From the NCBI GenBank assembly GCA_033761915.1, contig JANRMC010000200.1, forward strand, positions 1,007 through 65,006: a stretch of DNA of 64,000 nt. The letters run 5' to 3'. This document shows, piece after piece, positions 3,955-59,817 of the stretch; position 1 is the stretch's first letter, and each line of letters begins with the position of its first letter. The stretch comes from Flavihumibacter sp. (lineage in GTDB: Bacteria > Bacteroidota > Bacteroidia > Chitinophagales > Chitinophagaceae). The notes under the pieces are model-generated. The model did no database searches. It had not been told where the DNA came from and was given only the letters and a program-made list of their open reading frames with translations. Made by a program: the position numbers and the translations under genes.

Positions 3955-4038
3955 AAGTGTGCCCCGATGGCAAAACACAAATCCAATCGGGGTTTGCAAC
4001 GAGCAACAACTGCCGCCTCTTGTACCGGTGCTGGTATC
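3955..4038. repeat. palindromic element PE-1 (variant arm carrying a GC hairpin; half element)
   Basis: GAAGTGTGC-CCCGAT..ATCGGGG-TTTGCAACGAGCAACAACTG, then an outer GTACCGGTGCTGGTATC. The same variant occurs at 28534-28640. Confidence 0.55.
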
Positions 4039-4065
4039 AAATAATTTTCTTTTTTAAGTGTTTAT

Positions 4066-4209
4066 GGGTACTGTGCCGGCAACTGTTTTTCATAGCAACA
4101 GTTGTTGCGTCGCACCTGTTAGCTGCAACGCTGCGAGGAACGAGTAGCTGTTGCACTTCATCCCGCCAATAGCGGGACTTCAGCGCCAGTGCTGGTGGCA
4201 GCCGGTTTC
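4066..4209. repeat. palindromic element PE-2 (left arm intact, right arm degenerate)
   Basis: Outer GGGTACTGTGCCGGCAACTG; core GTTGTTGCGTCGCACC at 4101-4116; distal CTTCAGCGCCAGTGCTGGTGGCAGCCGGTTTC. Confidence 0.55.
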
Positions 4210-4255
4210 ATCATTGCGTTTAGCAACAGGGTTGTACTTTAGCAAAAACAATTTT

Positions 4256-4798
4256 ATGTCAACCATTGGTACCACTTACCTGCAATCGGCCATTAAACGA
4301 CTTTTATATTATAAAGACCTGGCAGAAAAAACGTTTGCCCAGCTAAGTGAGGAAGCACTTTTTTATACCCCCCATGCAGCCAGCAACAGCATTGCTATAG
4401 TAGTGCAACATCTGGCAGGCAATATGCTCAGCCGGTTTACGCATTTTTTAACAGAAGACGGGGAGAAGCCATGGCGCCACCGCGATGCAGAGTTTGAACC
4501 CACTATTAAAGATGCTGCCGCTTTACTGGCTTACTGGCAAAAAGGGTGGGATTGCTGTATAACTGCGCTGCAAGCCCTGCAGGAAGACGATTTGCAAAAA
4601 ACAATATACATCAGAACAGAACCCTTGCTGGTAATAGATGCTATTAACCGGCAACTGGCGCACTACCCGTACCATGCAGGGCAAATAGTTTTTTTAGGTA
4701 AACTATTAAAGGGCGCCGAATGGCAAACCTTATCAATAGCCAGAGGACAATCGGCGCAATTTAACAGCCATATGCAAGAGCAAAGCAGCAAGAAATAA
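4256..4798 (+). CDS. DinB-superfamily protein (DUF1572-like)
   Basis: ORF track 4151..4798. I trimmed the start to ATG 4256 (MSTIGTTYLQSAIKRL) because the 35 upstream codons read through a palindromic repeat. Spaced His residues are typical of the DinB helical bundle (VVQHLAGN, WRHRDAEF, LAHYPYHAGQ). Confidence 0.7.
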   Translation: MSTIGTTYLQSAIKRLLYYKDLAEKTFAQLSEEALFYTPHAASNSIAIVVQHLAGNMLSRFTHFLTEDGEKPWRHRDAEFEPTIKDAAALLAYWQKGWDCCITALQALQEDDLQKTIYIRTEPLLVIDAINRQLAHYPYHAGQIVFLGKLLKGAEWQTLSIARGQSAQFNSHMQEQSSKK

Positions 4799-4907
4799 TT
4801 TATTAAAACCCTTGCAGGGCTAAGCTTCTATGGTTATCTTGTGCCGCCTTCACACCATCCAACAGCACTACGAAAAGCCTTTGGTAAACCCTTTAAACCC
4901 CGCTAAA

Positions 4908-5531
4908 ATGAAAAAAAGGTTTTTCGGCCTCACGGTATTTTTATTGCTACTGCATACTGCCCATGCGCAGGTAAACTGGGCTGTAAAAGCCGGCTTTCAA
5001 TATGGCAGCGCCACCATTAAATTAAAAGACGAGAAAATTGCATCGGGCTCTTTACCCGGATTAAATATAGGTATTGCCACCCGCGTGCCAATTGATAAGC
5101 AGGTGTATTTTGCCCCCGGCTTTCATTATACCATAAAAGCCTACAGCATTGCTGCCACCAGCACCGCCCCACAAAAAGATTACCGGTTTACGTATTTAGA
5201 ACTACCTGTTTTACTGCAAATAAATTTTAGTGAAGATGCAGAACAGGGGGCTTATTTTAAAATTGGTCCTTCTTTAGGGCTGGCCATAAAAGGAAAAGAA
5301 ACCTTTAAAAACAGTTTTGGCAACGTTACCAATAACAAACTAAAATTTAGTTTTGGCGAGTATGGTTATGCCGATGCTGCCGCCCATGCTTTTTTGGGCT
5401 ATACCTTTAAGGGAGGTTTTTTTGCAGAAGCGGGCATTGTGCAAAACCTGGGCAGCATTAGTAACGATGATTTTGGCCCTAAGATTACACCGCGACAGTT
5501 AACGGTTAATTTGGGGTATTTTATAAAGTAG
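4908..5531 (+). CDS. small outer-membrane beta-barrel (porin-family) protein
   Basis: ORF track 4830..5531, trimmed to ATG 4908. It has a signal peptide (MKKRFFGLTVFLLLLHTAHAQ), an alternating beta-strand pattern and a C-terminal LTVNLGYFIK. Confidence 0.75.
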   Translation: MKKRFFGLTVFLLLLHTAHAQVNWAVKAGFQYGSATIKLKDEKIASGSLPGLNIGIATRVPIDKQVYFAPGFHYTIKAYSIAATSTAPQKDYRFTYLELPVLLQINFSEDAEQGAYFKIGPSLGLAIKGKETFKNSFGNVTNNKLKFSFGEYGYADAAAHAFLGYTFKGGFFAEAGIVQNLGSISNDDFGPKITPRQLTVNLGYFIK

Positions 5532-5547
5532 GTAATAGCATATAAAA

Positions 5548-5585
5548 GAAAATGCCGGTAACATTATTACCGGCATTTTCTTTTC
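5548..5585. terminator. bidirectional rho-independent terminator between convergent genes
   Basis: A perfect 14-bp stem (GAAAATGCCGGTAA / TTACCGGCATTTTC) with a 5-nt loop, an A-run before and a T-run after. Confidence 0.8.
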
Positions 5586-5593
5586 AAATAATT

Positions 5594-7309: not shown

Positions 7310-7336
7310 ACAAACAAATTATTTAAACATTTTTAA

Positions 7337-7412
7337 CCGGGTAGCCAGCTTAAGTAATGCTATTAAACTCTCGTTGCGTCGCACACTTCAGCGGCAACAA
7401 TATTGCTGAACC
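7337..7412. repeat. palindromic element PE-3 (left arm only)
   Basis: CCGGGTAGCCAGCTTAAGTAATGCTATTAAACTCTCGTTGCGTCGCACACTTCAGC, with the core at 7372-7392. Only GCTGAA remains of the right arm. Confidence 0.7.
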
Positions 7413-7525
7413 AAATTTGCATTTTGTTGCTACTATAGTTTTAGCAAACAATAAACCATGCCGGGGTAAATGGTTATTATGTTGAAAATTACGCAACTAA
7501 AAACAAAATGGCCATCTTTTTTGTT

Positions 7526-7603
7526 AGCTAAAATCCCTAAATTCGACTGTAGATGGACAAAAAATTCTATCTTACTGTAAATCTCCAAGTCCTTCCTGCA
7601 AAC
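7526..7603 (+). promoter_or_regulatory. conserved upstream block shared with the T9SS paralog B leader
   Basis: The colinear blocks are AGCTAAAAT, ATGGaCAAAAA, CTGTAaaTCTCCAAGT and TCCTGC. They end 30 nt before ATG 7633 and also occur at 41945-42008. Confidence 0.4.
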
Positions 7604-7632
7604 CAAACTAACTAAACAAATTGGGTTAAATT

Positions 7633-11443: not shown

Positions 11444-11473
11444 AAAAGCCCCGCCATTAGCGGGGCTTTTTTT
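11444..11473 (+). terminator. rho-independent terminator of the TBDR-OmpA fusion gene
   Basis: AAGCCCCGC-CATTA-GCGGGGCTT followed by TTTTT. Confidence 0.85.
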
Positions 11474-11476
11474 ATT

Positions 11477-11638
11477 GGGGTAACCGGCAGTAACAACTCC
11501 GGTTGGGCATCGTTGCGTCGCACACTTCAGCTACAGAATTTCTGATTTGAGATTTTAATTTCAAATCAGAAATTTCAAATCTCAAATGTTGAAGTGTGCG
11601 ACGCAACGATGTTGCTGGCAGCACTGCTGCTGGTTACC
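11477..11638. repeat. palindromic element PE-4 (complete, TTCAGC subtype)
   Basis: Left: GGGGTAACCGGCAG...CATCGTTGCGTCGCACACTTCAGC (core 11508-11531). Right: TTGAAGTGTGCGACGCAACGATG (11589-11611)...CTGCTGGTTACC. The loop contains its own nested hairpin (ATTTCTGATTTGA/TCAAATCAGAAAT). Confidence 0.9.
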
Positions 11639-11665
11639 AAAAAGAAAAAATTATTAAGTAAGTTG

Positions 11666-14250: not shown

Positions 14251-14817
14251 ATGGCTATCTTAAAGTTCAGGATTTATTTTGAGGAAGACGATACGGTTTA
14301 CCGGGATGTGGCAATACGGCACACCCAGTTTTTTTTAAACCTGCATCAGGCAATTTTAAAGGCTTACGAGTTTGACAGTAAACATCAGGCTACTTTTTTC
14401 AGAAGTAACGATAACTGGCAGCGTGGTAAAGAAATTACTTTAGAGAAATATGATAAAGTCTATAAAGCTGAACCTTTATTAATGGATGCAACCACTATTG
14501 GCTCAGAAATTTATGACCCCAATCAAAAGTTTGTATATGTATACGACTTTACCAAGAACTGGACTTTTATGGTAGAGTTAATTAATGTATCAAAAGAAGA
14601 CAATCCGAGAATAGATTATCCCGCCGTAGTAAGAACAGAAGGCATTGCTCCTTCTCAGTACGGAACAAAAGGATTGGTAAACGATAAACTGGCCGAGATG
14701 GAGGAGAAGTATGATTTAAAAACCGGAGCGGAGGGTTTTGGAGAAGAAGGCGAAGAATCTGATGATGATGAAATGGGGCAGGAAGAGACGGGGGAAGAAA
14801 GCAGTGATGAGTTTTAG
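14251..14817 (+). CDS. pRiA4b ORF-3-like (PRiA4_ORF3/MM3350-like) domain protein with a polyacidic C-terminal tail
   Basis: 188 aa. ILKFRIYFEEDDTVYRDVAI...LHQAILKAYEFDSKH..FF and FVYVYDFTKNWTFMVELI match the family pattern (Y.YDFGD.W.H.I). The tail is EGEESDDDEMGQEETGEESSDEF. Confidence 0.6.
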   Translation: MAILKFRIYFEEDDTVYRDVAIRHTQFFLNLHQAILKAYEFDSKHQATFFRSNDNWQRGKEITLEKYDKVYKAEPLLMDATTIGSEIYDPNQKFVYVYDFTKNWTFMVELINVSKEDNPRIDYPAVVRTEGIAPSQYGTKGLVNDKLAEMEEKYDLKTGAEGFGEEGEESDDDEMGQEETGEESSDEF

Positions 14818-18499: not shown

Positions 18500-18655
18500 G
18501 GTTTACTTTTTTAAAATTACATTTGCGCTTGCCTTAGTAAAAATACAACAAATACTATGCAAGTGCCAGCTTTTATTGTGAGGGCATTGTTAAAAACAAT
18601 AACGGCTGTTAGGGCTTGTAAAGTATAGGCAAAAGTTCTTAATTAATGGCTGTTT

Positions 18656-18788
18656 GGGGTAGCCGGCCGGGGTGCAAAACCCGGCATCCTTGCGTCGCAC
18701 ACTTGTACTTTTATGGGCCTGTGGGCTATTGCTCATAAGCATTCTAAATGCACAAGAGTGCGACGCAAGAAAAGCTTAATAGCCATAC
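18656..18788. repeat. palindromic element PE-5 (complete, TTGTAC subtype)
   Basis: GGGGTAGCCGGCC...CATCCTTGCGTCGCACACTTGTAC (18685-18708) and GCACAAGAGTGCGACGCAAG (18750-18769), then CTTAATAGCCATAC. Confidence 0.85.
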
Positions 18789-18818
18789 AAATGCTAAGTA
18801 CATAAAATAAAAAAACAA

Positions 18819-23633: not shown

Positions 23634-23668
23634 AAAATAGAAGTATGTAATAAGTATTAAACTATTTT

Positions 23669-23836
23669 GTTACCAGCAGTGGTGGTACTATTTAACATTC
23701 TTGCGTCGCACACTTGTACTTAAGAAAAGCTATAAGCTGAGAGGCATAAGGCCTTATAGCTTTTGCCACATACCTTTTACTATAGTTGAAGTGTGCGACG
23801 CAACGATGCTGATAAAAGAACAGCTGCTGGTAACCC
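23669..23836. repeat. palindromic element PE-6 (complete, hybrid arms)
   Basis: The left arm is GTTACCAGCAG...CATTCTTGCGTCGCACACTTGTAC (23696-23719, TTGTAC type). The right arm is TTGAAGTGTGCGACGCAACGATG (23786-23808, TTCAA type)...GCTGCTGGTAACCC. It ends 4 nt before the amn stop codon. Confidence 0.9.
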
Positions 23837-23840
23837 AATA

Positions 23841-24611
23841 TTAAAATTTAAGATGCCGCACGGTAAGCCCGTTGTTCATTAACTGCTTTAATGAGTCGAT
23901 ACCTATTTTAATATGATTTTCTACATAAGAGCCGGTAACTTTTTTATCGCTTTCTTCTGTTTTAACGCCTTCGGGTATCATGGGCTGATCGCTCACCAAC
24001 AACAGCGCACCAGTTGGTATTTTGTTATAGAAGCCTACAGAAAAAATGGTGGCCGTTTCCATATCTATAGCATAGGCTCTTACTTTTTTCAGATACTCTT
24101 TAAACACTTCATCATGCTCCCATACGCGGCGGTTAGTGGTGTACACCGTGCCGGTCCAGTAATCTACACCATGGTCTCTGATGGTGGTGGAAACTGCTTT
24201 TTGTAATGCAAACGCAGGCAGTGCCGGTACTTCGGGCGGAAAGTAATCGTTTGATGTACCCTCTCCGCGAATGGCGGCAATGGGCAAAATTAAATCGCCA
24301 ATATTATTACGCTTTTTTAAACCACCGCATTTGCCCAAAAACAAAACAGCTTTGGGATGAATAGCGGTTAGTAAATCCATAATAGTGGCAGCAGTAGGGC
24401 TGCCCATACCAAAATTAATAATGGTAATATTGTCTGCAGTGGCGCATTGCATGGGTTTTCCAATACCTACCACGTCTACTTTGTGCCACTCTGCAAACAG
24501 GGTAACATAATTGCTGAAATTGGTTAAAAGAATGTACTCTCCAAAATCAGTTAATTGCTGGCCGGTGTAGCGGGGCAACCAGTTGTCTACAATTTCTTCT
24601 CTTGTCTTCAT
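23841..24611 (-). CDS. amn: AMP nucleosidase-like nucleoside phosphorylase (PNP_UDP_1 fold)
   Basis: ORF track 23841..24626 (TTG start), with ATG at 24611 (MKTREEIVDNWLPRYTG). FLGKCGGL and AIDMETATIF are motifs of the short AMP nucleosidase family. Confidence 0.75.
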   Translation of the reverse strand: MKTREEIVDNWLPRYTGQQLTDFGEYILLTNFSNYVTLFAEWHKVDVVGIGKPMQCATADNITIINFGMGSPTAATIMDLLTAIHPKAVLFLGKCGGLKKRNNIGDLILPIAAIRGEGTSNDYFPPEVPALPAFALQKAVSTTIRDHGVDYWTGTVYTTNRRVWEHDEVFKEYLKKVRAYAIDMETATIFSVGFYNKIPTGALLLVSDQPMIPEGVKTEESDKKVTGSYVENHIKIGIDSLKQLMNNGLTVRHLKF

Positions 24612-26614: not shown

Positions 26615-26720
26615 GATGTATTTTTTTTAGGTTTTTATATGGTTGCAATCGTTGTAACTGATGAACGCTTGTTGTTTTAACAGGGTTAAAAAATATGAGC
26701 CAATCAGAGCGAACCTTTTT

Positions 26721-26790
26721 CAACAGTTGTTGCGTCGCACACTTCAGCTCATAGCACTTAACTCAACATTTTGCTACTGCAAATGTTGAA
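26721..26790. repeat. palindromic element PE-7 (left arm plus truncated right arm)
   Basis: GTTGTTGCGTCGCACACTTCAGC at 26726-26748. The right arm is cut after CAAATGTTGAA (26780-26790), 1 nt before the stop codon of the ccmD-like gene. Confidence 0.7.
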
Positions 26791-29930: not shown

Positions 29931-31156
29931 ATGTAATTTAGTATAGCCGCCGTAGCACCGGTGTTTTCTTTTACATAATTGCCTGCTGCCTGTGCTGCTG
30001 CCTGGTATGCCATTTGATTACTTAATAATTGCTGCAATACGTTTTCTGCTTCCAATGCATTTTCTATGGTAAAAGCGCCACCGGCTTCCACCATGTCAAC
30101 AGCTTCGTAATGCTTTTCATAATTAGGGCCAAACAATACCGGCTTATAATAAACCGCCGCTTCTAAAATATTATGCAACCCATCATCGCCAAAGCCGCCA
30201 CCTACATAAGCAATGGTGGCATAACGGTAAAGTTTGCTGAGCATGCCAATATTATCAATTATTAAGGTGTTGGCATTTGTTGCCGCACCACTGTAAGCAG
30301 AAAGACGGATACTGTTTTTAAAAAGGGGCAATATTTCTTTCATCCGCTCTTCGCCAATTTCATGCGGGGCAATAATAAATTTCAGTTCGGGGTGGGTATT
30401 GGCAAAATGATCCAGCTCTTCCTCATCTTCCAGCCAGGTGCTGCCAGCTACAATAACGGGTGCGTTGCCAATAAAACTTTCAATAAGCGCTAATGGTTCA
30501 AAAGATTGGGCAATGGCGGTAACCCGGTCAAATCTTGTATCTCCACTTACTGCCACATTTTTTGTAAAGCCAATACTGTTTACCAGTTCTTTTGAAACCA
30601 GTGTTTGTACAAATAGCTGTTCAAAACAACCCAGCATGTGGCGATGCAAACGGCCATACCACTTAAAAAAGGGCTGTGAAGGCCTGAATAAGCCAGCAAC
30701 AAGCAGGGCGGGTATATTTCTTTTTTTAAGGGTGTTGAGGTAATGATACCAATATTCATACTTCACCCAAAGCACCAGGTTGGGTTGTATGATATCTAAG
30801 AAGGCTGCCGCATTTTTAGCACTGTCTGCCGGCAGGTAAAACACTGCATCAGCACCTTTATAATTTTTTCTTATTTCATAACCAGAGGGAGAAAAAAAAG
30901 TGAGTACAATGCGGCATTGCGGGTGTTGTTTTTTTAATGCTTCCAGCACGGGCCGGCCCTGTTCAAATTCTCCTAAAGAAGCGCTGTGCATCCAAATGGT
31001 AAAATTGCTTTGTGTATTGCTCCAGGTGGCGGCAATATGCGGCAACAGGTTTTTACGGCCTTGCACCCAAAGTGCTGCCTTTGTGTTCCAGGGGGCCAGG
31101 CAACGGGCTGCTATGCCGTATAACCAAACAAATATTTTATACAGTAATAAATGCAT
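29900..31156 (-). CDS. waaA: 3-deoxy-D-manno-octulosonic acid (Kdo) transferase
   Basis: 418 aa of GT30 type (WMHSASLGEFEQGRPVLEALK, VGGGFGDDGLHNILEAAVY). Confidence 0.88.
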   Translation of the reverse strand: MHLLLYKIFVWLYGIAARCLAPWNTKAALWVQGRKNLLPHIAATWSNTQSNFTIWMHSASLGEFEQGRPVLEALKKQHPQCRIVLTFFSPSGYEIRKNYKGADAVFYLPADSAKNAAAFLDIIQPNLVLWVKYEYWYHYLNTLKKRNIPALLVAGLFRPSQPFFKWYGRLHRHMLGCFEQLFVQTLVSKELVNSIGFTKNVAVSGDTRFDRVTAIAQSFEPLALIESFIGNAPVIVAGSTWLEDEEELDHFANTHPELKFIIAPHEIGEERMKEILPLFKNSIRLSAYSGAATNANTLIIDNIGMLSKLYRYATIAYVGGGFGDDGLHNILEAAVYYKPVLFGPNYEKHYEAVDMVEAGGAFTIENALEAENVLQQLLSNQMAYQAAAQAAGNYVKENTGATAAILNYIQEKRLLTSR

Positions 31157-31166
31157 GTGTTTTTTT

Positions 31167-31326
31167 GTAGTCAGCTACAGTACCTTAATCAGCTTCTGTT
31201 GCGTCGCACACTTCAGCTACAGAATTTTTGATTTGACATTTTTAATTTCAAATCAGAAACATCAAATCTCAAATGCTGAAGGGTGCGACGCAACGGCTGT
31301 TTATTAGCATTACTGCCGCCGGGCTC
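31167..31326. repeat. palindromic element PE-10 (complete, TTCAGC subtype; near-twin of PE-4)
   Basis: CTGTTGCGTCGCACACTTCAGC (31196-31217) and GCTGAAGGGTGCGACGCAACGGCTG (31275-31299), then TTATTAGCATTACTGCCGCCGGGCTC. The loop is almost identical to that of PE-4. Confidence 0.9.
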
Positions 31327-31415
31327 AAAAATAAAGCTTTGCAAAGAAACGGGTTACCAACGAGTTAATAATTGGGTATTTTCAAAATACCACTTTCAGC
31401 CTATGCTTATTTTAC

Positions 31416-33946: not shown

Positions 33947-34930
33947 ATGAGCAGAGAAAGAGTATTAATAACCGGCGCTGCCGGTTTTTTAGGTTCACAC
34001 TTGTGTGACCGCTTTATAAAAGAAGGCTATCATGTAATTGGCATGGATAACCTGATAACAGGCGATTTGAAAAATATTGAACACCTGTTTAAGCTGGAGC
34101 AATTTGAGTTTTATAATCACGATATTACCAAGTTCATTCACATACCCGGCGAGCTGAAATATATTTTACATTTTGCATCGCCAGCCAGCCCCATTGACTA
34201 TTTAAAAATTCCCATACAAACCTTAAAAGTAGGCGCACATGGCACGCACAATTGCCTGGGTTTAGCCAAAGCAAAAAATGCCCGCATACTCGTGGCCTCT
34301 ACTTCAGAAGTGTATGGAGACCCATTGGTGCATCCGCAAACAGAAGAATATTGGGGTAATGTAAATCCGGTTGGTCCACGAGGCGTGTATGATGAGGCAA
34401 AGCGTTATATGGAATCTATCACCATGGCCTATCATACCTTTCATGGTGTTGAAACCAGAATCATACGCATATTTAATACCTATGGCCCGCGTATGCGATT
34501 GAATGATGGTCGTGCATTGCCCGCCTTTATTGGTCAGGCGTTGCGGGGTGAGGATTTAACCGTTTTTGGCGATGGCAGCCAAACCCGCAGTTTCTGCTAT
34601 GTGGCCGATCTGGTGGAAGGTATTTACCGCTTGTTGCTGAGCGATTATCATTTGCCGGTAAATATTGGTAACCCCGATGAAATTTCATTAAAAGACTTTG
34701 CAGAAGAAATTATTAAGCTAACCGGCACCACGCAAAAAATTGTGTACAAGCCCCTGCCTAAAGATGATCCGAAGCAACGCAAACCAGATATTACAAAAGC
34801 AAAACAAATTTTAGGCTGGCAACCCACCGTGCACCGTAGCGAAGGCGTGAAAGTAACGTATGAATATTTCAAATCGTTACCACAAGAAGAGTGGATTAAA
34901 CAACCCAAAGAATTTGTGAGTATAAAATAA
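33947..34930 (+). CDS. uxs: UDP-glucuronate decarboxylase (UDP-xylose synthase family SDR)
   Basis: ORF track 33896..34930, with ATG at 33947 ([22 protein letters not shown]). The catalytic YDEAKR and the [10 protein letters not shown] motif are typical of UXS. Confidence 0.88.
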
Positions 34931-35084
34931 CCAGCAGGAGCCCGGCAGTAGTAATACTATCGGGCTTTTGTTGCGTCGCACTCTTGTACATTTGTAATTA
35001 ACGCAGCCCGGTGCCGCATAGCATTACTGCCGTAAAAGTGAGTGACACAACGATGCTGAATAAAGATATAAAGTCCGTAACCCC
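34928..35084. repeat. palindromic element PE-11 (complete, TTGTAC subtype, right arm mutated)
   Basis: TAACCAGCAGGAGCCCGGCAGTAGTAATAC...GTTGCGTCGCACTCTTGTAC (34970-34989) and GTAAAAGTGAGTGACACAACGATGCTG (35032-35058)...CCGTAACCCC. The uxs stop codon TAA is the first 3 nt of the outer arm. Confidence 0.8.
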
Positions 35085-35134
35085 ATTTATAAAACTGCTT
35101 AAAACGTTTATCAACCTTTTAATTAAAAAAAAGA

Positions 35135-38983: not shown

Positions 38984-39054
38984 TTGGCCTACCTGGATTC
39001 GAACCAAGACAAACAGAACCAAAATCTGTCGTACTACCATTATACTATAGGCCA
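38984..39054 (-). tRNA. tRNA-Gln (anticodon TTG)
   Basis: The reverse complement reads TGGCCTA-TA-GTATAATGGTAGTAC-G-ACAGA-TTTTGGT-TCTGT-TTGT-CTTGG-TTCGAAT-CCAGG-TAGGCCA-A. The acceptor stem is 7 bp, the anticodon loop is centred on TTG, the T-loop is TTCGAAT, and no CCA is encoded. Confidence 0.9.
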
Positions 39055-39140
39055 ATCCTTTTTTCCCTTTCGGGGCTGCAAAAATAAGGTGAGAAACAGC
39101 ACCTTCCAAACATTTTTTAAAGCTAATAAGTAATTTTTTT

Positions 39141-39343
39141 GTGGGCAGGCAGTATCACATTGTTCAACTCCGGTTGCGTCGCACACTTCAGCAGTAAAAC
39201 AAATTTCAGCCAGAAGCCATCTGTTTTTAACAAGGCACCGTATTATAGTAGCATTAGGCATTGGTGTTTAGTGGTTTGATAGGAGCACTGCCGTTGAACT
39301 GAGCGTAGCAACGGTGTTGCCCCGGAGTATGGTGGCTGGTAAA
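39141..39343. repeat. palindromic element PE-12 (left arm intact, right arm degenerate)
   Basis: GTGGGCAGGCAGTATCAC...CCGGTTGCGTCGCACACTTCAGC (39170-39192) and TTGAACTGAGCGTAGCAACGGTG (39294-39316)...GGCTGGTAAAC. Confidence 0.75.
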
Positions 39344-39527
39344 CTGCTTTATAAATACGCTAAAACAAATGACGATTAGCATAAAATACATGGTAATAAA
39401 TTAATAAACCGCCCTTGCCGGGCCCAACTTTATTACTTATTTTGCAGCCGCTTTCGTCCCCCTTTAGTCCAACTACAAAAACACCTCTGATCCATTTCCT
39501 GTGGCCTATACTTTTAAATTTTATTGT

Positions 39528-44457: not shown

Positions 44458-44472
44458 GTAACTTTCAAAAAG

Positions 44473-44637
44473 GGTGTTGCCAGCAGTAAATCGCTATGCA
44501 GCTTTACTTGCGTCGCACACTTCAGCAGTAAGTTAAAAATGAAAAGTAAAAATTTAAAAAAGACTGCAATGCTTTTTTACTTTTTAATAATTCAGAATTA
44601 AGATTCAAATGTTGCAGTGTGCGACGCAACAATGTTC
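44473..44637. repeat. palindromic element PE-13 (complete, TTCAGC subtype)
   Basis: GGTGTTGCCAGCAGTAAATCGC...ACTTGCGTCGCACACTTCAGC (44506-44526) and CAAATGTTGCAGTGTGCGACGCAACAATG (44606-44634). The loop is AT-rich with its own hairpin (AAAAGTAAAAA/TTTTTACTTTT). Confidence 0.88.
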
Positions 44638-44682
44638 TATTGAAAAACTACGGTTAAGCTCATAATTAAAACAAATTACATT

Positions 44683-50043: not shown

Positions 50044-50082
50044 TGTGTTCCTTGTATATTTTCTGCTGCCAATGGTATTTCT

Positions 50083-50135
50083 GCTGAAGTGTGCGACGCA
50101 AGGATGCTGCTAATAGTACCGATGCTGGCTACCCC
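50083..50135. repeat. palindromic element PE-14 (right arm only)
   Basis: GCTGAAGTGTGCGACGCAAGGATGCTGCTAATAGTACCGATGCTGGCTACCCC. It directly abuts the glmS stop codon at 50136-50138. Confidence 0.8.
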
Positions 50136-51971
50136 TTATTCAACAGTGACACTTTTAGCAAGGTTTCTTGGTTTATCTACATCCAGGCCTTTTGCCACAC
50201 CTACATAATAACTGAGCAACTGCAACGGAATTACGCTTAACATGGGTGCTACAATTTCATCTGCTTCGGGTACCACAATCACATCGTCGGCCATGCCACG
50301 GATGGTGTCATCGCTTTCGCTGATGACTGCAATTACTTTTCCTTTGCGGGCTTTAATTTCTTGTATGTTGCTTACAATTTTTTCGTAGTAAGAGTCTTTG
50401 GTGGCTACAAATACCACGGGCAGGTTTTCATCTACCAGTGCAATGGGGCCATGTTTCATTTCTGCAGCGGGATAACCTTCTGCATGGATATAAGAAATTT
50501 CTTTAAGCTTTAAGGCGCCTTCTAATGCAATGGGGAAATTGTAGCCACGGCCCAGGTATAAAAAGTCTTTGGCGTCTTTATACTTATCTGCTATGCGTTT
50601 TATATTGTCAGTGTCTTTTAAGGCCAGTGCTACTTTCTCTGGTATGTCATTCATTTCGTTTAGCAGATGCATATAGCGTTCTGTGCTGATGGTGCCTTTG
50701 TAATGTGCAATTTTTAAAGCCACCATGGTTAGTACGGCTAACTGTGCGGTAAAAGCCTTGGTGCTGGCCACGCCAATTTCGGGTCCGGCGTGGGTATAAG
50801 CACCGCTATGCGAAGCACGGGCAATAGAAGACCCCACCACATTTAAAATACCGAAGATGATGGCACCTTGTTCTTTTGCTTTTTCTATTGCTACCAGGGT
50901 ATCTGCCGTTTCACCACTTTGTGATATGGCAATAATTACATCTCCTTTATTTACGATGGGGTTTCTGTATCTGAACTCTGATGCATATTCAACTTCTACC
51001 GGTATGCGGCACAACTCTTCAATAACATATTCTGCCACCAGGCCGGCATGCCAGCTGGTGCCACAGGCAATAATTAATATGCGGGGTGCATTTTTTAATT
51101 GTTCAATATAGTTCTGCACACCACTCATGGTAATGGTGCCGGTGGTGGCATCTAAGCGGCCCCGTAAACAATCGTGAATGGTGTGTGGCTGTTCAAAAAT
51201 CTCTTTGATCATGAAATGATCGTATCCTCCTTTTTCAATGGCGGCCAGCTCAAGATCCAGCTTTTGTATATAAGGGGTAATTTTTTCATTGCCCAGGTTT
51301 TTCAAAATCATTTCGTCGGCTTTTAAAATGGCCAACTCATAATCGTTTACATACACCACTTCTTTTGTGTATTCTATAATGGGCGATGCATCGGAGGCTA
51401 AAAAATGTTCTCCTTTGCCAACGCCGATTACCAACGGACTGCCTTTGCGGGCGGCAATGATAGTATCGGGGTTATCCTGATCTATTAAAATAATTACATA
51501 AGCGCCTACCACACGGCGTAATGCAATACGGATGGCTTCTTCTAAGCCACAATTGTTATTTTCTTGTATGTCTTGTATAAAGTTGAGGAGTACTTCTGTA
51601 TCGGTATCGCTTTTAAACTGATAGCCTTTTTTTTGCAGCTCTTGTTTTAGCTGGGCATAGTTTTCAATAATACCATTATGTATCATGGCTATTTTGCCGT
51701 TTGCACTCATGTGGGGGTGTGCATTACGGTCGCTGGGTTCTCCGTGGGTGGCCCAACGGGTATGGCCAATGCCAATATGCGAGTGAAGGTCTTTGCCAAC
51801 CAGGCTCTCTTCCAACTCCGCAACCTTTCCTTTTTTCTTGTACACCTTAAGGCCACCGTTTAAAAGGGCCACGCCACTACTGTCGTAGCCGCGGTATTCT
51901 AATCTTTTTAAACCTTTTAATACGATAGGATAGGCTTCTCTGGGTCCGATGTATGCAACAATGCCGCACAT
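50136..51971 (-). CDS. glmS: glutamine--fructose-6-phosphate aminotransferase (isomerizing)
   Basis: 611 aa with an N-terminal nucleophile (MCGIVAYIG), two SIS domains and a C-terminal NLAKSVTVE. Confidence 0.96.
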   Translation of the reverse strand: MCGIVAYIGPREAYPIVLKGLKRLEYRGYDSSGVALLNGGLKVYKKKGKVAELEESLVGKDLHSHIGIGHTRWATHGEPSDRNAHPHMSANGKIAMIHNGIIENYAQLKQELQKKGYQFKSDTDTEVLLNFIQDIQENNNCGLEEAIRIALRRVVGAYVIILIDQDNPDTIIAARKGSPLVIGVGKGEHFLASDASPIIEYTKEVVYVNDYELAILKADEMILKNLGNEKITPYIQKLDLELAAIEKGGYDHFMIKEIFEQPHTIHDCLRGRLDATTGTITMSGVQNYIEQLKNAPRILIIACGTSWHAGLVAEYVIEELCRIPVEVEYASEFRYRNPIVNKGDVIIAISQSGETADTLVAIEKAKEQGAIIFGILNVVGSSIARASHSGAYTHAGPEIGVASTKAFTAQLAVLTMVALKIAHYKGTISTERYMHLLNEMNDIPEKVALALKDTDNIKRIADKYKDAKDFLYLGRGYNFPIALEGALKLKEISYIHAEGYPAAEMKHGPIALVDENLPVVFVATKDSYYEKIVSNIQEIKARKGKVIAVISESDDTIRGMADDVIVVPEADEIVAPMLSVIPLQLLSYYVGVAKGLDVDKPRNLAKSVTVE

Positions 51972-53357: not shown

Positions 53358-53423
53358 ACAAAAAAGAGATTAGCCGGTAAGAAAACAAGTTATTTTCTTC
53401 TTTTCTTTCCGGCTAAAGGTTTA

Positions 53424-54332: not shown

Positions 54333-54399
54333 AGCAATCTATTTTTATTGTTGTTGCTGAAGCTACACAAAAACCCTGTTTTTATAAAATGAAATGTAA

Positions 54400-54579
54400 G
54401 GAAGCCGGCATTTGTTCTATGAGCGGCATCGTTGCGTCGCACTCTTGTACAATATCTGTTAATGGTACATGGTTTATAGCCAATGGTATTGCCATAGACT
54501 ATTAACTATTGACCATGGACATTCTTCTGTACAAGTGTGCGACGCAACGATGTTGATTGAAATTACTGTGGCTGGTAAC
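54400..54579. repeat. palindromic element PE-15 (complete, TTGTAC subtype)
   Basis: GGAAGCCGGCA...CATCGTTGCGTCGCACTCTTGTAC (54427-54450) and GTACAAGTGTGCGACGCAACGATG (54529-54552)...ATTACTGTGGCTGGTAAC. It ends 7 nt before the porin stop codon. Confidence 0.9.
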
Positions 54580-54586
54580 AAAAAAA

Positions 54587-56623
54587 TTAATTCACAAAAC
54601 TCCAGAAAATGCCCACACGTATTTGCATGCCGGGCAACGGGTAGCCGGGTATGGCAAAATTATTATTGGTAAAACCAAAGCCACCCAATGTGCGGGCCGT
54701 ATTTAAATTTTCTGAACGCACATAGGCAACAAAACTGCGGATGCGAAAGTGCATGTATGCATTAATGGTGGGTAGTTTCAGGCGCAGGGTTTCAGTATCC
54801 TGATAAAAAAACTGGCCCTGCAGCGGAGAGTAGCCATCTGCTTTGTAGGCGCTGTGGTACACAATTTCTATACCGGTGGCCATGCGCAGGTTTTTAAAAC
54901 CAAGGCTGCCCTCGTAACCAATTTGATTGCGGGTAAAAATTAAGGGCACATTTACCGGCGGGTTGCCCGTGGTTTGCTGCATGCTTACGGTGGCATGCAA
55001 GAACAATTGCTTGCGCAGCCTGAAACGTTTTTCTGCCGTTACCTGCAACAGGTTAAACGGAGATGCCTGTTGTGCAGCTTTATAAAATTCTTTCAGGTAA
55101 GTATAGTTGGTTACTAAAAAATAATCGGCTCTTAATTTAAAATTAAAAGCAGGTTGGTCTAACAAACCAAAAATACGTACCGTGTTTTCTTTATTAAAGC
55201 CGCTGCTGTTAGAAAAATTAAAACTGCTGAGCGGGTTAAATATAAAAGAAGGGGTTCTGTTTACGTTTTGAAAACCGGCTTCCAGATAGCCAATTTTTTG
55301 AGAGAGTAGTCTTTTTAAACTGGCATAGGCATTATAGTCGCCACCATTTAAACCGGTAAGGTATAGCTGGCCGTTCAATTGCATATCCCACTTTCGGTTG
55401 CGGGTTTTGTTACGGTATTCTGCATGCAGCCAGGTATTGGTATAATTGGCGCTGCCACCATCAAAATTGCCGCGCAGTTGCTGCAGCGTGGCACCTACTT
55501 TAATAAATTGGTTTACGTTTTTAGAATCCGGAAACTGCCATAGCGAAAGATCGTTGCTCAACTCGTTCCAGCTATCGTTTACATAATATGTAGAAGGCGT
55601 GCTTAAAAAATTATAATGCTTACGGTAAAAACCGGTATCTGTAAATTCAGAAACTTCACCATCATCAAAAGCATAACTGTAGCTGTTGCTCTGCAACGTA
55701 TGCTCTATACGCAGCCTTGGGTAAAACAGGCGAATTACCACTGTGTCTTTAACAATAGAATCTTTCTGGCCAATATCATATTGCTGGCGCACCAAAAAAT
55801 TTTTGTTGCGGTATTGTGTGCCGGTGGTTATGGCTGCGCTAAAGGGGTTAATGGCGCCGGGGTCGGTAGGCCCCAGGTTAGTAGGTATGCCTTGCCGGTT
55901 TGTTTTATAACCCACGCGGTCTAAATCGGCATCGTTTACAATGCCGCCATTATCGGCAGAAGAAATTTTGTTGTTTATTAAAACCACAAACATACGGTAG
56001 CGCCGGTTGGGGCTTTGGTAAAAACTATTTATGTTATAGTTATTGTGTACGGTATTTTGGTTTTTAAAAAAGCCATTGGAGTTTATTAAACGAAATTGGG
56101 CAGACAGATTCCAGTTACGGTTAATATTTTGTGTGTGCAGGGCATGCACCATCTGCTCTGCATTGCTGCCAATTAAATAACCCAGTTCTGAGTAGGGGCG
56201 GGTGGTATTATAAAAGCGGCTGTCTTCTGGTTTGAAAAAGTATAAATCGTATGCATGAAAACCGGCATCCCAACCCGGCTTTAATATGGGGCTGAACAAA
56301 AGCGGTTTGGTGGCATTGCCCAAATTGCCCAGGTGAATATAGTTTGCCGGTATAGGAAAACGCTTCGTAAAATCCAACACGCTGGAGTCAAACGTTTGAT
56401 AGCGGCTGCTATCCAGATACCTGAAGTTAATAGTAATAGAATCTTCTAAGCCCGTACGTTTTTTAAAGCTGGAACTGTCTTTGCCGCCACCGCTGCTACC
56501 TCTGAAACTATTCCCCATATTTCCCATTTGGCCGCCCGAAAAATTACGCAGGGGGTTGCGTTGGGCAACAGCAGGTACAACCAGAGCCAGTAAGAGAAAC
56601 GATATGGTAAACTGTTTTATCAA
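54587..56623 (-). CDS. putative porin (large Bacteroidota outer-membrane beta-barrel family)
   Basis: 678 aa with a signal peptide (MIKQFTISFLLLALVVPAVAQ), a Gly/Ser-rich N-region, a beta-strand-rich body and a terminal RVGIFWSFVN. Confidence 0.65.
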   Translation of the reverse strand: MIKQFTISFLLLALVVPAVAQRNPLRNFSGGQMGNMGNSFRGSSGGGKDSSSFKKRTGLEDSITINFRYLDSSRYQTFDSSVLDFTKRFPIPANYIHLGNLGNATKPLLFSPILKPGWDAGFHAYDLYFFKPEDSRFYNTTRPYSELGYLIGSNAEQMVHALHTQNINRNWNLSAQFRLINSNGFFKNQNTVHNNYNINSFYQSPNRRYRMFVVLINNKISSADNGGIVNDADLDRVGYKTNRQGIPTNLGPTDPGAINPFSAAITTGTQYRNKNFLVRQQYDIGQKDSIVKDTVVIRLFYPRLRIEHTLQSNSYSYAFDDGEVSEFTDTGFYRKHYNFLSTPSTYYVNDSWNELSNDLSLWQFPDSKNVNQFIKVGATLQQLRGNFDGGSANYTNTWLHAEYRNKTRNRKWDMQLNGQLYLTGLNGGDYNAYASLKRLLSQKIGYLEAGFQNVNRTPSFIFNPLSSFNFSNSSGFNKENTVRIFGLLDQPAFNFKLRADYFLVTNYTYLKEFYKAAQQASPFNLLQVTAEKRFRLRKQLFLHATVSMQQTTGNPPVNVPLIFTRNQIGYEGSLGFKNLRMATGIEIVYHSAYKADGYSPLQGQFFYQDTETLRLKLPTINAYMHFRIRSFVAYVRSENLNTARTLGGFGFTNNNFAIPGYPLPGMQIRVGIFWSFVN

Positions 56624-56684
56624 AACAAAGAATGCCGCAAACTTAGTAACTAAAACGCAGTAAGCCCAAGGCAGAACGTTAATA

Positions 56685-57506
56685 TTACAAACCCGCCACC
56701 AGGTGTTTAAAAATAGCAGTTAGTTTGGGTTCTGCATCTTTTGCAGCCTGCAATACTTCTTCGTGTGTTATAGTGTTTTCTTCATCACGTATGCCAAGGT
56801 CTGTAATTACGCTAATGGCAAATACTTTCATGCCCGCATGTACTGCAGTAATCACTTCTTGCACAGTACTCATGCCCACGGCATCGCCACCCAGTTGGTG
56901 TATCAGTTTGTATTCGGCACGGGTTTCAAAAGTGGGGCCGGTAACACCGCAATACACACCTTTCTTTAAATCAATATGCAATTCTTTGGCAATTTCTTTT
57001 GCCTTTTTAATAAGGTGTTTATCATAAGGCTCACTCATATCCGGAAAACGCGGACCCAGTTCATTTTCATTTTTCCCAATCAGCGGGTTGCTAATAAATA
57101 AACTGATATGGTCTTTAATAAGCATCAGGTCGCCCACTTTAAAATCGTTATTGGTGCCGCCGGCTGCATTACTTATTAAAACAGTTTGCACGCCCAGCCA
57201 TTTCATTACCCGTATGGGGTAAGAAACCTGTGTGGCATTATACCCTTCGTAAAAATGAAAACGCCCGGCCATACACACAACCGGTTTGCCTGCCAGTTTA
57301 CCAAATATCAGTTTGCCGCTATGTCCTTCCACTGTAGATACCGGAAAATGCGGTATCTCGTTATAGGCAATTTCTTTTTCTATCTGCAACTCAGCACTAA
57401 AATTACCCAAGCCGCTGCCCAATACAATACCTACTAAAGGGGTGGTGCTATACATGCTTTTTATAAAAGCCGTTGTTTCGTTCAATTGCTCAATTAATAC
57501 ACTCAT
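56685..57506 (-). CDS. purine nucleoside phosphorylase (PunA-type, trimeric PNP family)
   Basis: 273 aa with GSGLG, GRFHFYEGY, NAAGG, GPTFETRAE and GMSTVQEV. Confidence 0.92.
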   Translation of the reverse strand: MSVLIEQLNETTAFIKSMYSTTPLVGIVLGSGLGNFSAELQIEKEIAYNEIPHFPVSTVEGHSGKLIFGKLAGKPVVCMAGRFHFYEGYNATQVSYPIRVMKWLGVQTVLISNAAGGTNNDFKVGDLMLIKDHISLFISNPLIGKNENELGPRFPDMSEPYDKHLIKKAKEIAKELHIDLKKGVYCGVTGPTFETRAEYKLIHQLGGDAVGMSTVQEVITAVHAGMKVFAISVITDLGIRDEENTITHEEVLQAAKDAEPKLTAIFKHLVAGL

Positions 57507-57516
57507 AATTTTTTAT

Positions 57517-57595
57517 GTTACCGGCATTGGTTCCTGCTTCAGCTTTTGTTGCGTCGCACTCTTGTACAGCAGTGCGTTTGGCAACGGCATTACAG
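57517..57595. repeat. palindromic element PE-16 (left arm with collapsed, degenerate right arm)
   Basis: GTTACCGGCATTGG...GTTGCGTCGCACTCTTGTAC (57548-57567), followed directly by AGCAGTGCGTTTGGCAACGGCATTACAG. Confidence 0.7.
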
Positions 57596-57787
57596 TCAAA
57601 GCCTGTTGTTATGCAAAATCTTTATAATCTAACGCCCGTTTATCTTTTGTAAATGAAGGCAGCAAATATACACAATGCATTTACCACAGTTGCATTCTTT
57701 TTATATTGGCATAAGCCCCGTTTATGAATTATATTTGAAGACTAAATTAACCAGACCATTAAACATATTTGTTACATACTGTCATGC

Positions 57788-59692
57788 ATGGCTGCTTTCT
57801 TTACTGCCGTGCCATTGTCGGCGCAGTTGTGCACCGGCAGCCTGGGCGATCCGCTGGCCATTAAAAACTTTGGCAGCGGCAGCAACCCCGGCCAATCACT
57901 GGCTCCGGGTGTAACTACGTATAGTTATACAATCAGTGGTTGCCCGCCCGATGGAAGTTATACTATTTACAGCAGTGCCGGCAGCTGTTTTAACGATTCG
58001 TGGCATGTGCTTACAGAAGACCACACCCCCGGAGATGTAAACGGGTATATGATGGCGGTGAATGCGGCACTTACCCCGGGTGTTTTTTATTTAGATACTG
58101 TAAAGGGTTTGTGCGGCACTACGCTGTATGAATTTTCTGCCTGGGTGTTAAACATATTAAAGCCCACCGCTTGTAATGGTGCTGGCACAAGACCCAATCT
58201 TTCTTTTAGCATAGAAACAACCGCAGGCGTTGTATTACAATCGTACAACACCGGAGATATAAACAGCACGGCAACACCGGTATGGAACCAATATGGTTTT
58301 TTTGTAAGCCTGCCACCCGGTGTAACCGATGTGGTATTGCGTTTAACCAATAATGCCCCCGGTGGTTGTGGTAACGATCTGGTGCTGGATGATATCGCCT
58401 TCAGGCCCTGTGGCCCCAAGCTGGATGCCTTGTTTGCCAACGTTACGGGTAATAATGGCACGGTTAACTATTGTATTGTTAGCAGCCAGTCGGTAAGTTT
58501 TACTGCCAATTTGCAAAGTGGTTATACCAACCCGGCTTACCAATGGCAGGTAAGTGCCGATGGTGTATTGTGGAATGATATTGTTGGTGCCACCACAGCT
58601 AACTATACCAGAGCTTTTAATGTAGCCGGCACATTCCGCTATCGTATTACGGCAGCAGAAGCTGCTAATATTGCCAGTACCAAATGCCGGGTGGTATCAA
58701 ACGTATTAACAGTAATAATTGACTCAGTACCCAAACCTGCGGCTGCCAGCAATGGCCCTGTTTGCGAAGGCGGTGTAATTAATTTAACAGCTAAAGACGG
58801 TGTTACGTATCAATGGACGGGGCCCAATGGTTATACTGCCACCGGCACCCCTGCAGTAATAAATGCAGCACAAATTAATCAATCGGGTAAGTATTATGTT
58901 TTGGTAACAACAGCCGGTGGTTGCACCAATACAGATTCTGTACCGGTGGCTATTAACCCCAATCCCATAGCTGCAGCCGGTGCTGATGAAATTATATGCG
59001 ATAATGAAAGCGTGGTGCTAAGCGGTAGTGGCGGCACAGCATACGATTGGCAACCCACAACGGGATTATCCAACGGATCGGTACCCAACCCGGTGGCAGC
59101 ACCCAAGCTAACCACTACTTATATTTTAAGAGTATTAAATAGTTTTGGCTGCGGCGATACAGATACTGTTACCGTAACTGTATTAACTGCACCCACTGCA
59201 GATGCCGGCCCCGATTTAACGATTATTGAAGGAACAGCTGTAAAAATAAATGCGCAGGCAACAGGGGGTACTCTCACCTATTTATGGTCGCCGCCCCTTT
59301 ATATAGACAACCCGGGCATACTAACACCCACCGTGGCCCCGCCAGATAATTTGGTTTACCGGTTGTCTGTAATATCAGCCAATGGTTGTGGTGCTGCGGA
59401 AGATGAAGTAGCTGTACGAGTATTTAAAAAACTAATTGTACCCAATGCGTTTTCTCCCAACGGAGATGGAATTAATGATAAATGGATGATTGAAGCAATA
59501 GGCTCTTACCCCGAAGTGGTGGTGGAAATATTTAACCGCTACGGGCAAAAACTATTCCGCTCGGTGGGGTATACCAGACCATGGGATGGAACTTTAAATG
59601 GCCAGCTTTTGCCAATTGGCACCTATTATTATTTAATAGACCGCAAGAACGGGCTGCCACAACTGAGCGGCAGTGTAACTATTCTTCGTTAG
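57788..59692 (+). CDS. T9SS type-B (gliding-motility-associated) C-terminal-domain protein
   Basis: 634 aa. The CTD is VPNAFSPNGDGINDKWMIE...EIFNRYGQKLF...WDGTLNGQLLPIGTYYYLI, preceded by Ig/PKD-like repeats. The first ATG gives only a 13-aa signal-like segment (see findings). Confidence 0.85.
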   Translation: MAAFFTAVPLSAQLCTGSLGDPLAIKNFGSGSNPGQSLAPGVTTYSYTISGCPPDGSYTIYSSAGSCFNDSWHVLTEDHTPGDVNGYMMAVNAALTPGVFYLDTVKGLCGTTLYEFSAWVLNILKPTACNGAGTRPNLSFSIETTAGVVLQSYNTGDINSTATPVWNQYGFFVSLPPGVTDVVLRLTNNAPGGCGNDLVLDDIAFRPCGPKLDALFANVTGNNGTVNYCIVSSQSVSFTANLQSGYTNPAYQWQVSADGVLWNDIVGATTANYTRAFNVAGTFRYRITAAEAANIASTKCRVVSNVLTVIIDSVPKPAAASNGPVCEGGVINLTAKDGVTYQWTGPNGYTATGTPAVINAAQINQSGKYYVLVTTAGGCTNTDSVPVAINPNPIAAAGADEIICDNESVVLSGSGGTAYDWQPTTGLSNGSVPNPVAAPKLTTTYILRVLNSFGCGDTDTVTVTVLTAPTADAGPDLTIIEGTAVKINAQATGGTLTYLWSPPLYIDNPGILTPTVAPPDNLVYRLSVISANGCGAAEDEVAVRVFKKLIVPNAFSPNGDGINDKWMIEAIGSYPEVVVEIFNRYGQKLFRSVGYTRPWDGTLNGQLLPIGTYYYLIDRKNGLPQLSGSVTILR

Positions 59693-59704
59693 TAAAAGTA
59701 TTAT

Positions 59705-59817
59705 ACGGTGTTGCTGCGTTTGAATTGAGGTGCTGCATTTTATTTTTTGCTGCAAAATATTGTGCTGTACAAGTGTGCGACGCAAGGATGTTGAAAAGAA
59801 TTGGTATGGCCGGGCTC
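59705..59817. repeat. palindromic element PE-17 (right arm intact, left arm degenerate)
   Basis: GTACAAGTGTGCGACGCAAGGATG (59767-59790)...GGTATGGCCGGGCTC. A possible left remnant is CGGTGTTGCTGCGTTTGAATTGAGG from 59705. Confidence 0.7.

Follow-up and report, generated by a model that had tools for sequence, protein, structure and literature searches.

Enterobacterial repetitive extragenic palindromes (REPs), their mosaic clusters (bacterial interspersed mosaic elements, BIMEs) and the doublet-forming REPs of Pseudomonas (REPINs) are high-copy, strictly intergenic repeats in which head-to-head inverted dimers predominate. Other short, non-coding and modular repeats, namely pneumococcal BOX, Neisseria Correia and enterobacterial ERIC elements, also lie at gene junctions, are polymorphic in presence and absence, and possibly affect transcripts. 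DNA uptake sequences and uptake signal sequences (DUS and USS) have a short invariant core that is common to a bacterial family and occurs with variants, in both orientations and as inverted pairs in spacers, and that is also frequent in coding regions. CGTC-tagged REPs, which occur in Bacteroidetes, have no dedicated transposase and form mainly head-to-head dimers (Di Nocera et al. 2013, PMC3733652); they are defined by an 8–9-bp stem, a 4–5-nt loop and a CCA tail (PMC3733652). Here we analyze a 64-kb stretch of a Flavihumibacter sp. genome (contig JANRMC010000200.1; hereafter, the window, always meaning its whole length) that is densely populated by a short intergenic repeat, the Box B unit, together with comparison loci and contigs that are identified by L-numbers. 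Our best explanation, to which we give about an even chance, is that the window carries 21–23 copies of a non-autonomous dispersed DNA repeat of the REP/BIME/MITE (miniature inverted-repeat transposable element) kind that extends throughout the family Chitinophagaceae and is moved by a trans-acting protein encoded elsewhere. The basic entity is a single asymmetric arm of ~57–85 nt, and the palindromes described in an initial annotation of the window are head-to-head dimers of this arm.

The motif is real, dense and strictly intergenic, as the initial annotation had claimed. With at most one mismatch allowed, GTTGCGTCGCACWCTT had 19 matches in the window compared to 0.00 expected from dinucleotide-preserving shuffles, and all 20 exact TGCGTCGCAC cores fell within the 10.3% of the window that is non-genic (P ~2e-20). 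The core at 59775 overlaps an open reading frame (ORF) only when an upstream GTG is taken as its start, and the Pfam domain of that ORF begins near 59901. Set in register, the 20 arms aligned without gaps over 75 nt, and a profile hidden Markov model (HMM) of this 75-nt arm, built from them and run with nhmmer, found 21 arms at E<0.01, spread over 14 spacers. Partial HMM matches followed by inspection added two degenerate arms, at ~3930-4049(-) and 39308-39357(-), for a window total of 21–23 arms at 14–15 loci; the initial annotation was right about the family and too high in its count of 17 loci. It had also placed a copy in nearly every spacer longer than about 120 bp, and many spacers do carry units, but only 14 of the 22 of at least 120 nt. 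Clean inverted pairs occupy six spacers (11.5k, 18.7k, 23.7k, 31.2k, 44.5k and 54.4k), and two more pairs, at 35.0k and 39.2k, have a partner arm with a variant Box B. Eleven window sites match Box B without mismatch, seven with one mismatch, one with two, none with three and three with four, and anything beyond is at background level. Over the window and the other genomes together, 9 of 206 arms lay inside an ORF according to rough ORF calls, on which the counts of spacer types, orientations and gene distances given below also rest. In Rfam, neither the window nor the units had a match, whether we applied the gathering thresholds or relaxed the cutoff to E=1. Literature searches, by topic as well as by sequence, yielded no description of this repeat family, and nothing relevant came up when the core was looked for in full texts, in agreement with the first impression of an unrecognized family resembling REPs, BIMEs or MITEs.

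From its outer to its inner end, the unit consists of an A/T run, TG, Box A (CCnGGC), ~20 variable nt, the invariant Box B (GTTGCGTCGCACWCTT) and a tail. In the consensus of 203 copies, the A/T run and TG are followed by an ACCCGGC-like Box A, ~20 weakly conserved nt, GTTGCGTCGCAC(T/A)CTTGTAC, ~7–12 nt and, often, TATTCAGCA; Box B has the form GTTGCGTCGCAC[A/T]CTT, then GTAC or CAGC, then a short tail. The A/T run and TG are target sequence that lies outside the mobile block, as read from the 57-nt difference between phages described below. The initial annotation regarded one long hairpin or cruciform, with complementarity extending outward without interruption, as the building block. Its two parts both failed: only Box B (~22 nt) and Box A (~8–10 nt) pair, the ~20 nt that separate them being unlike in the two arms of one dimer, and outside the window most copies are solo arms, which in phages completely fill junctions of 64–95 nt. 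A consensus fold of the 203 units (alifold) was essentially without stability on either strand (~0 kcal/mol), and base-pair covariation was seen in no column pair, which was the outcome of the covariation check suggested for the arms. A hairpin within the arm, between Box A and the segment before Box B, was rejected: it forms only in some GC-rich copies and is not accompanied by mutual information. Also rejected were a coding function, since the frame relative to Box B varies even though ATG or TTG is common at the TG position, and an extracytoplasmic function (ECF)-type promoter (GAACC...CGTC), whose spacing of ~29 nt, read directly from the consensus, is too long. The core of Box B is dyad-symmetric (GCG-T-CGC), and the suggestion that it is a plausible site for a dimeric protein survives as a prediction from sequence.

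Units that cluster do so almost exclusively head-to-head (13 cases, compared to one tail-to-tail and no tandem arrangement), and 39 of 186 arms had an inverted partner with at most six mismatches, compared to ~3 in controls. Several Box B types are each conserved across genomes: the standard B, B* (GTTGTGTCACTCAC, ~29 copies and frequent as the partner arm in heterodimers), C (GTTGCGTCGCAATCCGTTCATC), D (GTTGCGACGCTCCGTTCA) and E (GTTGCGTCGCATTTCGTTCATC). Relative to GCGTCGC, B* (GTGTCAC) is altered symmetrically in both half-sites, from GCG-T-CGC to GTG-T-CAC, which speaks for recognition of the site as a dyad. Classes of the variable region also recur, and they combine freely with all of these Box B types; class II (GTTTTTCATGGCATC), for instance, is combined with Box B in some copies and with B* or E in others. 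Outer and inner modules are similarly uncoupled in the dimers at 11.5k and 31.2k, which have in common a Box B–loop–Box B module that is 93% identical over 98 nt (11512-11608 vs 31198-31295) and that holds its own internal palindrome (TTTCTGATTTGA..TCAAATCAGAAA), and whose outer parts, Box A and the variable region, are unrelated.

Whole blocks have been inserted or deleted, copies have spread by duplication and modules have been shuffled. Variable modules with 85–94% identity were found at unlinked sites with unrelated flanks within the L022 genome, between genomes, and in a host compared to a viral contig. Spacers of bacterial genomes had diverged too far to be aligned with empty sites, and we therefore turned to related phages for this comparison. 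Phages L242 and L237 have, exactly between the terminase ATG and the stop codon before it, a 57-nt block that runs from Box A to 7 nt past Box B; the related phage L203 lacks this block (alignment A2), and its junction reads ..CTTAA|AAATAAATG... At two other junctions of the two phages that differ in this block, we found a divergent Box B at one and a truncated unit at the other (alignments A3 and A4), indicating that decay does happen. The unit downstream of glmS in the window is lacking from this junction in most of 80 related loci, and, with the clean phage difference, it provides the presence/absence polymorphism of spacers that the initial annotation had proposed to look for. Box B is itself a place of insertion. 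A 20-nt perfect palindrome at TTGCG^TCGCAC in L203 (~14279-14298) is missing from the related phage L229 (alignment A5), and similar hairpins are nested in or just after the Box B dyad in the window (~3958-3990 and ~4128-4145), in L134 (~2729-2746) and in L147 (~5900-5925). Given that these nested inserts are short GC-rich hairpins or perfect palindromes, e.g., CCTGCCTGCCGGCAGGCAGG and TCCCGCCAATAGCGGGA, and that one is polymorphic between phages, Box B seems to be an insertion hotspot for a second, smaller class of repeats.

The loci behind our bacterial counts were gathered by an exact 16-mer scan of one genome per species, which yielded at least 117 stretches, nearly all of them, among the matches listed, from Chitinophagaceae or Chitinophagales. 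Genus labels among these matches were Segetibacter, Terrimonas, Lacibacter, Ferruginibacter, Flavisolibacter, Sediminibacterium, Puia, Flavihumibacter and others, and the HMM detected 186 arms in their loci, mostly solo and typically one per spacer. In IMG/VR the exact 16-mer occurred in 43 stretches, 34 of which contained complete units, with 50 arms in total; the viral contigs examined are tailed phages carrying genes for terminase, major head protein, tail sheath and tape measure protein, and the short junctions occupied by their units lie between co-directional genes. Copy number differs widely between lineages. Six arms were found in the 80 loci gathered via GlmS (79–88% protein identity, 611 kb), i.e., ~0.01 per kb around glmS orthologues vs 0.33 arms per kb in the window. 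The junction between glmS and the DUF4954 gene measures 156 nt with its unit in the window and ~10–70 nt in most relatives. In L126, L127, L129, L130, L164 and L191 it contains unrelated simple or tandem-like repeats, such as GGTTAATG runs, GATGTCTGATGT and GTGAGATGTGAAA, and it appears to be a place where lineage-specific repeats gather. Assemblies are fragmented by the Box B unit: Logan contigs built from short reads of the same species (L118 and L119, 98% identity) stop inside Box B, at window positions 50083-50098 and 54451-54551. L119 ends in 20 nt that read as another Box B variant (CTTGCCACGCTCGGTTCAAC), which may reflect a chimeric join.

Units occur at A/T-rich junctions beside the ends of coding sequences, in either orientation, in host chromosomes as well as in phages. 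Among the matches listed, they were present in 27 of 50 convergent, 102 of 237 co-directional and 21 of 68 divergent spacers; their orientations numbered 59 vs 49 in co-directional spacers and 11 forward vs 8 reverse in phage operons (hand count). The Box A side is very near the closest coding sequence, stop or start alike, and is 6–8 nt from the stop codon in about a quarter of the cases at gene ends; on the Box B side, the distance to the next gene is larger (median 120–160 nt). We rejected the possibility that the unit is a promoter. Its T-run and TG do look like the -33 TTTG of Bacteroidetes promoters, and a TA follows 19 nt downstream, but it lacks the -7 TAnnTTTG box, such boxes are rare near units and at no fixed position, and the orientation of units is unbiased. 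The tRNA gene at 38984-39054 has its canonical Bacteroidetes promoter (TTTG-N20-TAttTTTG at 39080-39113, minus strand) outside the unit, between the gene and the unit, and the A-run of the unit abuts the -33 box.

REP-associated tyrosine transposases (RAYTs) are the enzymes that move classical REPs; in such systems the repeat is an imperfect palindrome of 20–40 nt with an unpaired GTAG (or CGTC) tag, and copies of it lie on the flanks of a single-copy RAYT gene. The initial annotation had predicted that a RAYT gene flanked by the arms might be found in the genome. Chitinophagaceae do have a highly conserved family of 172-aa RAYTs (Y1_Tnp; 1,765 proteins, some annotated at the source as REP-associated tyrosine transposase). 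We read the flanks of RAYT genes in Terrimonas pollutisoli (L244), Terrimonas sp. R1 and two other genomes or metagenomic assemblies (loci L089, L244, L245-L248 and L249 in all); the gene lies at 3001-3519 in L244, L245 and L249. Contrary to the prediction, these flanks hold different repeats, GGTTGGTG..CACCAACC or GTTGCTGGTG..CACCAGCAAC, and the 3 kb next to the RAYT genes are free of units, though T. pollutisoli carries units elsewhere. The RAYT-flanking repeat has no copy in the window and is rare in the fetched loci. The Chitinophagaceae RAYT and its own REP-like repeats are a system separate from the Box B unit, and, since another repeat flanks the RAYT, the unit family is probably not a classical REP–RAYT system. 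Within the window, Pfam analysis of all called genes bore out the statement that no transposase, Y1 transposase or RAYT is present, with the qualification that a large serine recombinase is encoded at 61840-63339, the only recombinase among the window genes.

In high copy number, strictly intergenic placement and the predominance of head-to-head inverted dimers, the Box B unit is like enterobacterial REPs and BIMEs and Pseudomonas REPINs, with which it also shares the lack of target duplication and a long evolutionary persistence; heterodimers of two unit types (B and B* here, Y and Z there) and BIME-like mosaic modules are further likenesses to REPs and BIMEs. Unlike REPs and REPINs, the unit is asymmetric and has neither a stem-loop nor a GTAG tag, the resident RAYT is flanked by another repeat, copies occur in phages, and genera throughout a family share the same conserved core of 12–20 nt. 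Like CGTC-tagged REPs, Box B contains CGTC, which in a few variants (window ~4128-4145, L134 and L147) is followed by a short GC-rich hairpin; unlike them, the standard unit has no 8–9-bp stem, loop or CCA tail, and the hairpins of the variants were inserted secondarily, at positions in Box B that vary. The unit family departs, then, from defining features of both REP–RAYT systems and CGTC-tagged REPs. With BOX, Correia and ERIC elements it has in common a short, non-coding, modular unit at gene junctions and differences in presence and absence, as well as possible effects on transcripts nearby; its solo unit lacks clear terminal inverted repeats, target duplication is not detectable, no related autonomous insertion sequence was found in the loci examined, and no sequence relationship is apparent. 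Unlike DUS and USS, the unit is excluded from coding DNA and is inserted as a whole block of 57–85 nt.

In the mechanism that we propose for this dispersed repeat, a putative dimeric protein, encoded elsewhere and acting in trans, would recognize Box B on DNA and would probably also cleave there. The dyad core GCG-T-CGC, its symmetric variant and the repeated nested insertions at its center point to Box B as a protein site. The putative protein would be conserved throughout the family and distinct from the resident RAYT; after insertion only the boxes that contact the protein would stay intact, either through selection or through the loss of defective copies, and effects on transcripts, such as the hairpins of dimers and A-rich leaders to downstream genes, would be side effects and not the reason for the elements. 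Several observations weigh against a mobile repeat of this kind. The single clean 57-nt indel could be a precise deletion and not an insertion. A flank-matching scan of 166 units by 46 inner offsets for target-site duplications, which in MITEs derived from DDE transposons have a fixed length, gave no peak at a plausible boundary; one junction, that of the 57-nt phage block, has CATAA on both sides, in an A/T-rich context, and the T-run and A-run that flank dimers are inverted, not direct. Solo units have no clear terminal inverted repeats, the ends of the 57-nt phage unit matching over 5–6 nt at best, compared to the long inverted arms of dimers. No mobilizing enzyme of the units was identified, and a search of all fetched DNA with E. 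coli RayT returned a single Y1 transposase, in Terrimonas sp. R1 (L089 6160-6678). As for an autonomous version of the element, there was no multi-copy protein family in ~0.9 Mb of genome loci flanking units, and ten single genes located between convergent arms, considered as candidates, resemble ordinary cellular genes when read from sequence (e.g., phosphoglycerate kinase-, HisF- and FabH-like). Finally, units keep the same position and orientation in several orthologous spacers of different genera (L004/L017/L100, L030/L035, L036/L037 and L062/L105), their variable regions having diverged, and such retained positions, with a Box B that is either intact or absent, would also fit a site selected by the host.

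That alternative is the main rival, although we consider it unlikely. It holds that the units are host-selected binding sites at gene boundaries for a nucleoid-associated, insulator or topoisomerase-type protein, that their mobility is incidental or ancient, and that phages copy a useful host signal. It would account for a Box B that is invariant across many genera beside a diverging variable region, for the missing decay series in the window, for retained orthologous positions, for Box A sides that abut stops and starts, for units within the structural operons of phages, and for a dyad core with a symmetric variant. An essential general function is hard to fit with the ~30-fold gap in load between the window and the 611 kb around glmS orthologues, however, and degenerate and truncated copies do exist in phages. 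Orthologous junctions are also often unit-free (L011/L109, L041/L049 and L025/L029), and the conservation of Box B in orthologous pairs is inflated by the collection of these loci with an exact 16-mer. Host binding and mobility may coexist, as in E. coli, where IHF and gyrase bind BIMEs. We find it quite improbable that the units are classical REPs or REPINs, in which dimers would replicate as single-stranded hairpins under the action of a RAYT (a Y1 HUH transposase) and solo arms would be decayed dimers. The near-exclusive head-to-head arrangement, the absence of target-site duplication, the existence of a conserved, single-copy-like RAYT family, duplicated copies that include both arms and the loop (the L022 pair; 11.5k and 31.2k), and a space on the inner side of solo units that would roughly accommodate a loop and a second arm all speak for it; yet the RAYT genes examined are accompanied by repeats of their own that are absent from the window, the unit itself is no hairpin, units are present in phages, and the phage junctions filled by solo units leave no room for a lost partner.

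An element acting at the RNA level, as the initial annotation had proposed, seems to us very doubtful; in this reading the long hairpins would form in the RNA once dimers are transcribed, and they would end transcripts, stabilize them or serve as processing sites. Dimers do fold into very stable hairpins (dG -50 to -90 kcal/mol, z -5 to -15) and lie at operon boundaries, and one of them, at 11.45k, abuts a bona fide terminator. Against this, single units show neither a conserved fold nor covariation on either strand, orientation is unbiased both in co-directional spacers and in phage operons, and divergent spacers carry units as well. With a T-run 5' and an A-run 3' of the dimers on both strands, a transcript would have its U-run before the hairpin and an A-run after it, so that neither strand has the tail of a terminator; for this reason, and given the lack of a conserved fold and of any Rfam match, we rejected an intrinsic terminator or RNA motif. 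Least credible, and in our judgment close to negligible, is a DNA uptake or self-recognition sequence comparable to the DUS of Neisseria or the USS of Pasteurellaceae, accumulated by uptake-biased recombination. An invariant family-wide core with 'dialects', the use of both orientations, the frequent inverted pairs and a core that is intact or absent would suit it, but none of the 20 cores is in coding DNA, what is conserved is a 57–85-nt block of several boxes, which appears by insertion as a whole and not by point mutation, and copy load varies greatly among relatives; we know of no natural competence dependent on uptake sequences in Chitinophagaceae. Returning to the dispersed repeat moved in trans, a bolder form of this reading, which we offer tentatively and think unlikely to be correct in all its parts, is that Box B is the recognition and cleavage site of a new DNA enzyme or binding protein other than a RAYT, conserved in the family, that copies or maintains one-sided units at gene boundaries in chromosomes and phages, and that the center of the dyad attracts nested palindromes.

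Table 1 Box B units and dimers along the window, with their strands, Box B features and surroundings.
Element	Position	Strand or arms	Box B	Context and evidence
Degenerate unit	3930..4049	-	CGTTGC...GCACACTTCGG, split by nested GC-rich hairpin CCCCGAT...ATCGGGG (~3958-3990)	Box A and variable region present; partial nhmmer match 4049-4003, E=1.8; sequence read
Solo unit	4061..4145	+	GTTGCGTCGCAC, then inserted segments including hairpin TCCCGCCAATAGCGGGA (~4128-4145)	Back-to-back with 3930..4049 unit; nhmmer E=3e-8
Solo unit	7328..7397	+		Box A side ~30 nt from start codon of gamma-glutamyltranspeptidase gene (5594-7309, -); nhmmer E=9e-12
Head-to-head dimer	11469..11654	11469-11537 +; 11582-11654 -		dG -89.7, z -15; left T-run is also the tail of an upstream terminator hairpin
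Head-to-head dimer	18642..18801			Upstream of prolyl-tRNA synthetase gene (18819-20297); HMM, folding
Head-to-head dimer	23654..23849		Arm tails differ (GTAC vs CAAC)	Fills spacer 23634-23840
Solo unit	26685..26750	+		Upstream of glutamate dehydrogenase gene (25196-26614, -); HMM
Head-to-head dimer	31153..31335			Box A side of left arm 10 nt from start codon of Kdo transferase gene (29900-31156, -)
Heterodimer	34926..35094	Right arm 35027-35094	Left arm Box B; right arm conserved variant Box B* GTTGTGTCACTCAC	
Unit with inverted partner	39127..39357	39127-39198 +; 39308-39357 -	Divergent in the minus-strand arm, GTTGCTACGCTCAGTTCAAC	Directly upstream of promoter of tRNA at 38984-39054
Head-to-head dimer	44464..44671			Between two genes for proteins with type IX secretion system (T9SS) sorting domains
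Solo unit	50078..50144	-		Box A side 2 nt past glmS stop codon
Head-to-head dimer	54387..54593			Fills spacer 54333-54586
Solo unit	57503..57572	+		Box A side 10 nt from start of purine nucleoside phosphorylase-family gene (56685-57506, -)
Solo unit	59763..59824	-		Between CHU_C/T9SS gene (57788-59692) and tetrahydrodipicolinate N-succinyltransferase-like gene (probable start near 59900)

Some further features of the window were noted beside these loci (Table 1). No repeat unit occurs past 59.8 kb, and the large serine recombinase gene (Resolvase and Recombinase domains, minus strand) adjoins a tRNA gene (61746-61829) and looks like the edge of an integrated element. The degenerate units at 3.9–4.1 kb lie beside a DUF1572/DinB_2 gene (4151-4798); a gene with the homologous domain is found in L244 (4021-4476), ~0.5 kb downstream of the T. 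pollutisoli RAYT, which may be a coincidence. In the convergent spacer at 53358-53423, the strain of the same species (L118 1128-1272, 98% identity) has ~77 extra nt in a terminator-like hairpin, and this extra sequence is not a unit.

At about one arm per 3 kb, a genome with an assumed size of a few Mb would hold roughly a thousand or more copies, and at such a copy number the unit family would be a major structural feature of an abundant bacterial family of soil and freshwater. The units inflate spacers, and they may supply A-rich leaders and long hairpins beside housekeeping genes. Box B may also serve as a marker sequence for Chitinophagaceae in metagenomes. Given that the units have no link to the resident RAYT, they are a tractable case for how dispersed repeats other than REPs arise and persist, and, if it is true that a non-RAYT protein handles Box B, they would represent a new system of mobilization or of 'gene-boundary punctuation' in this family.

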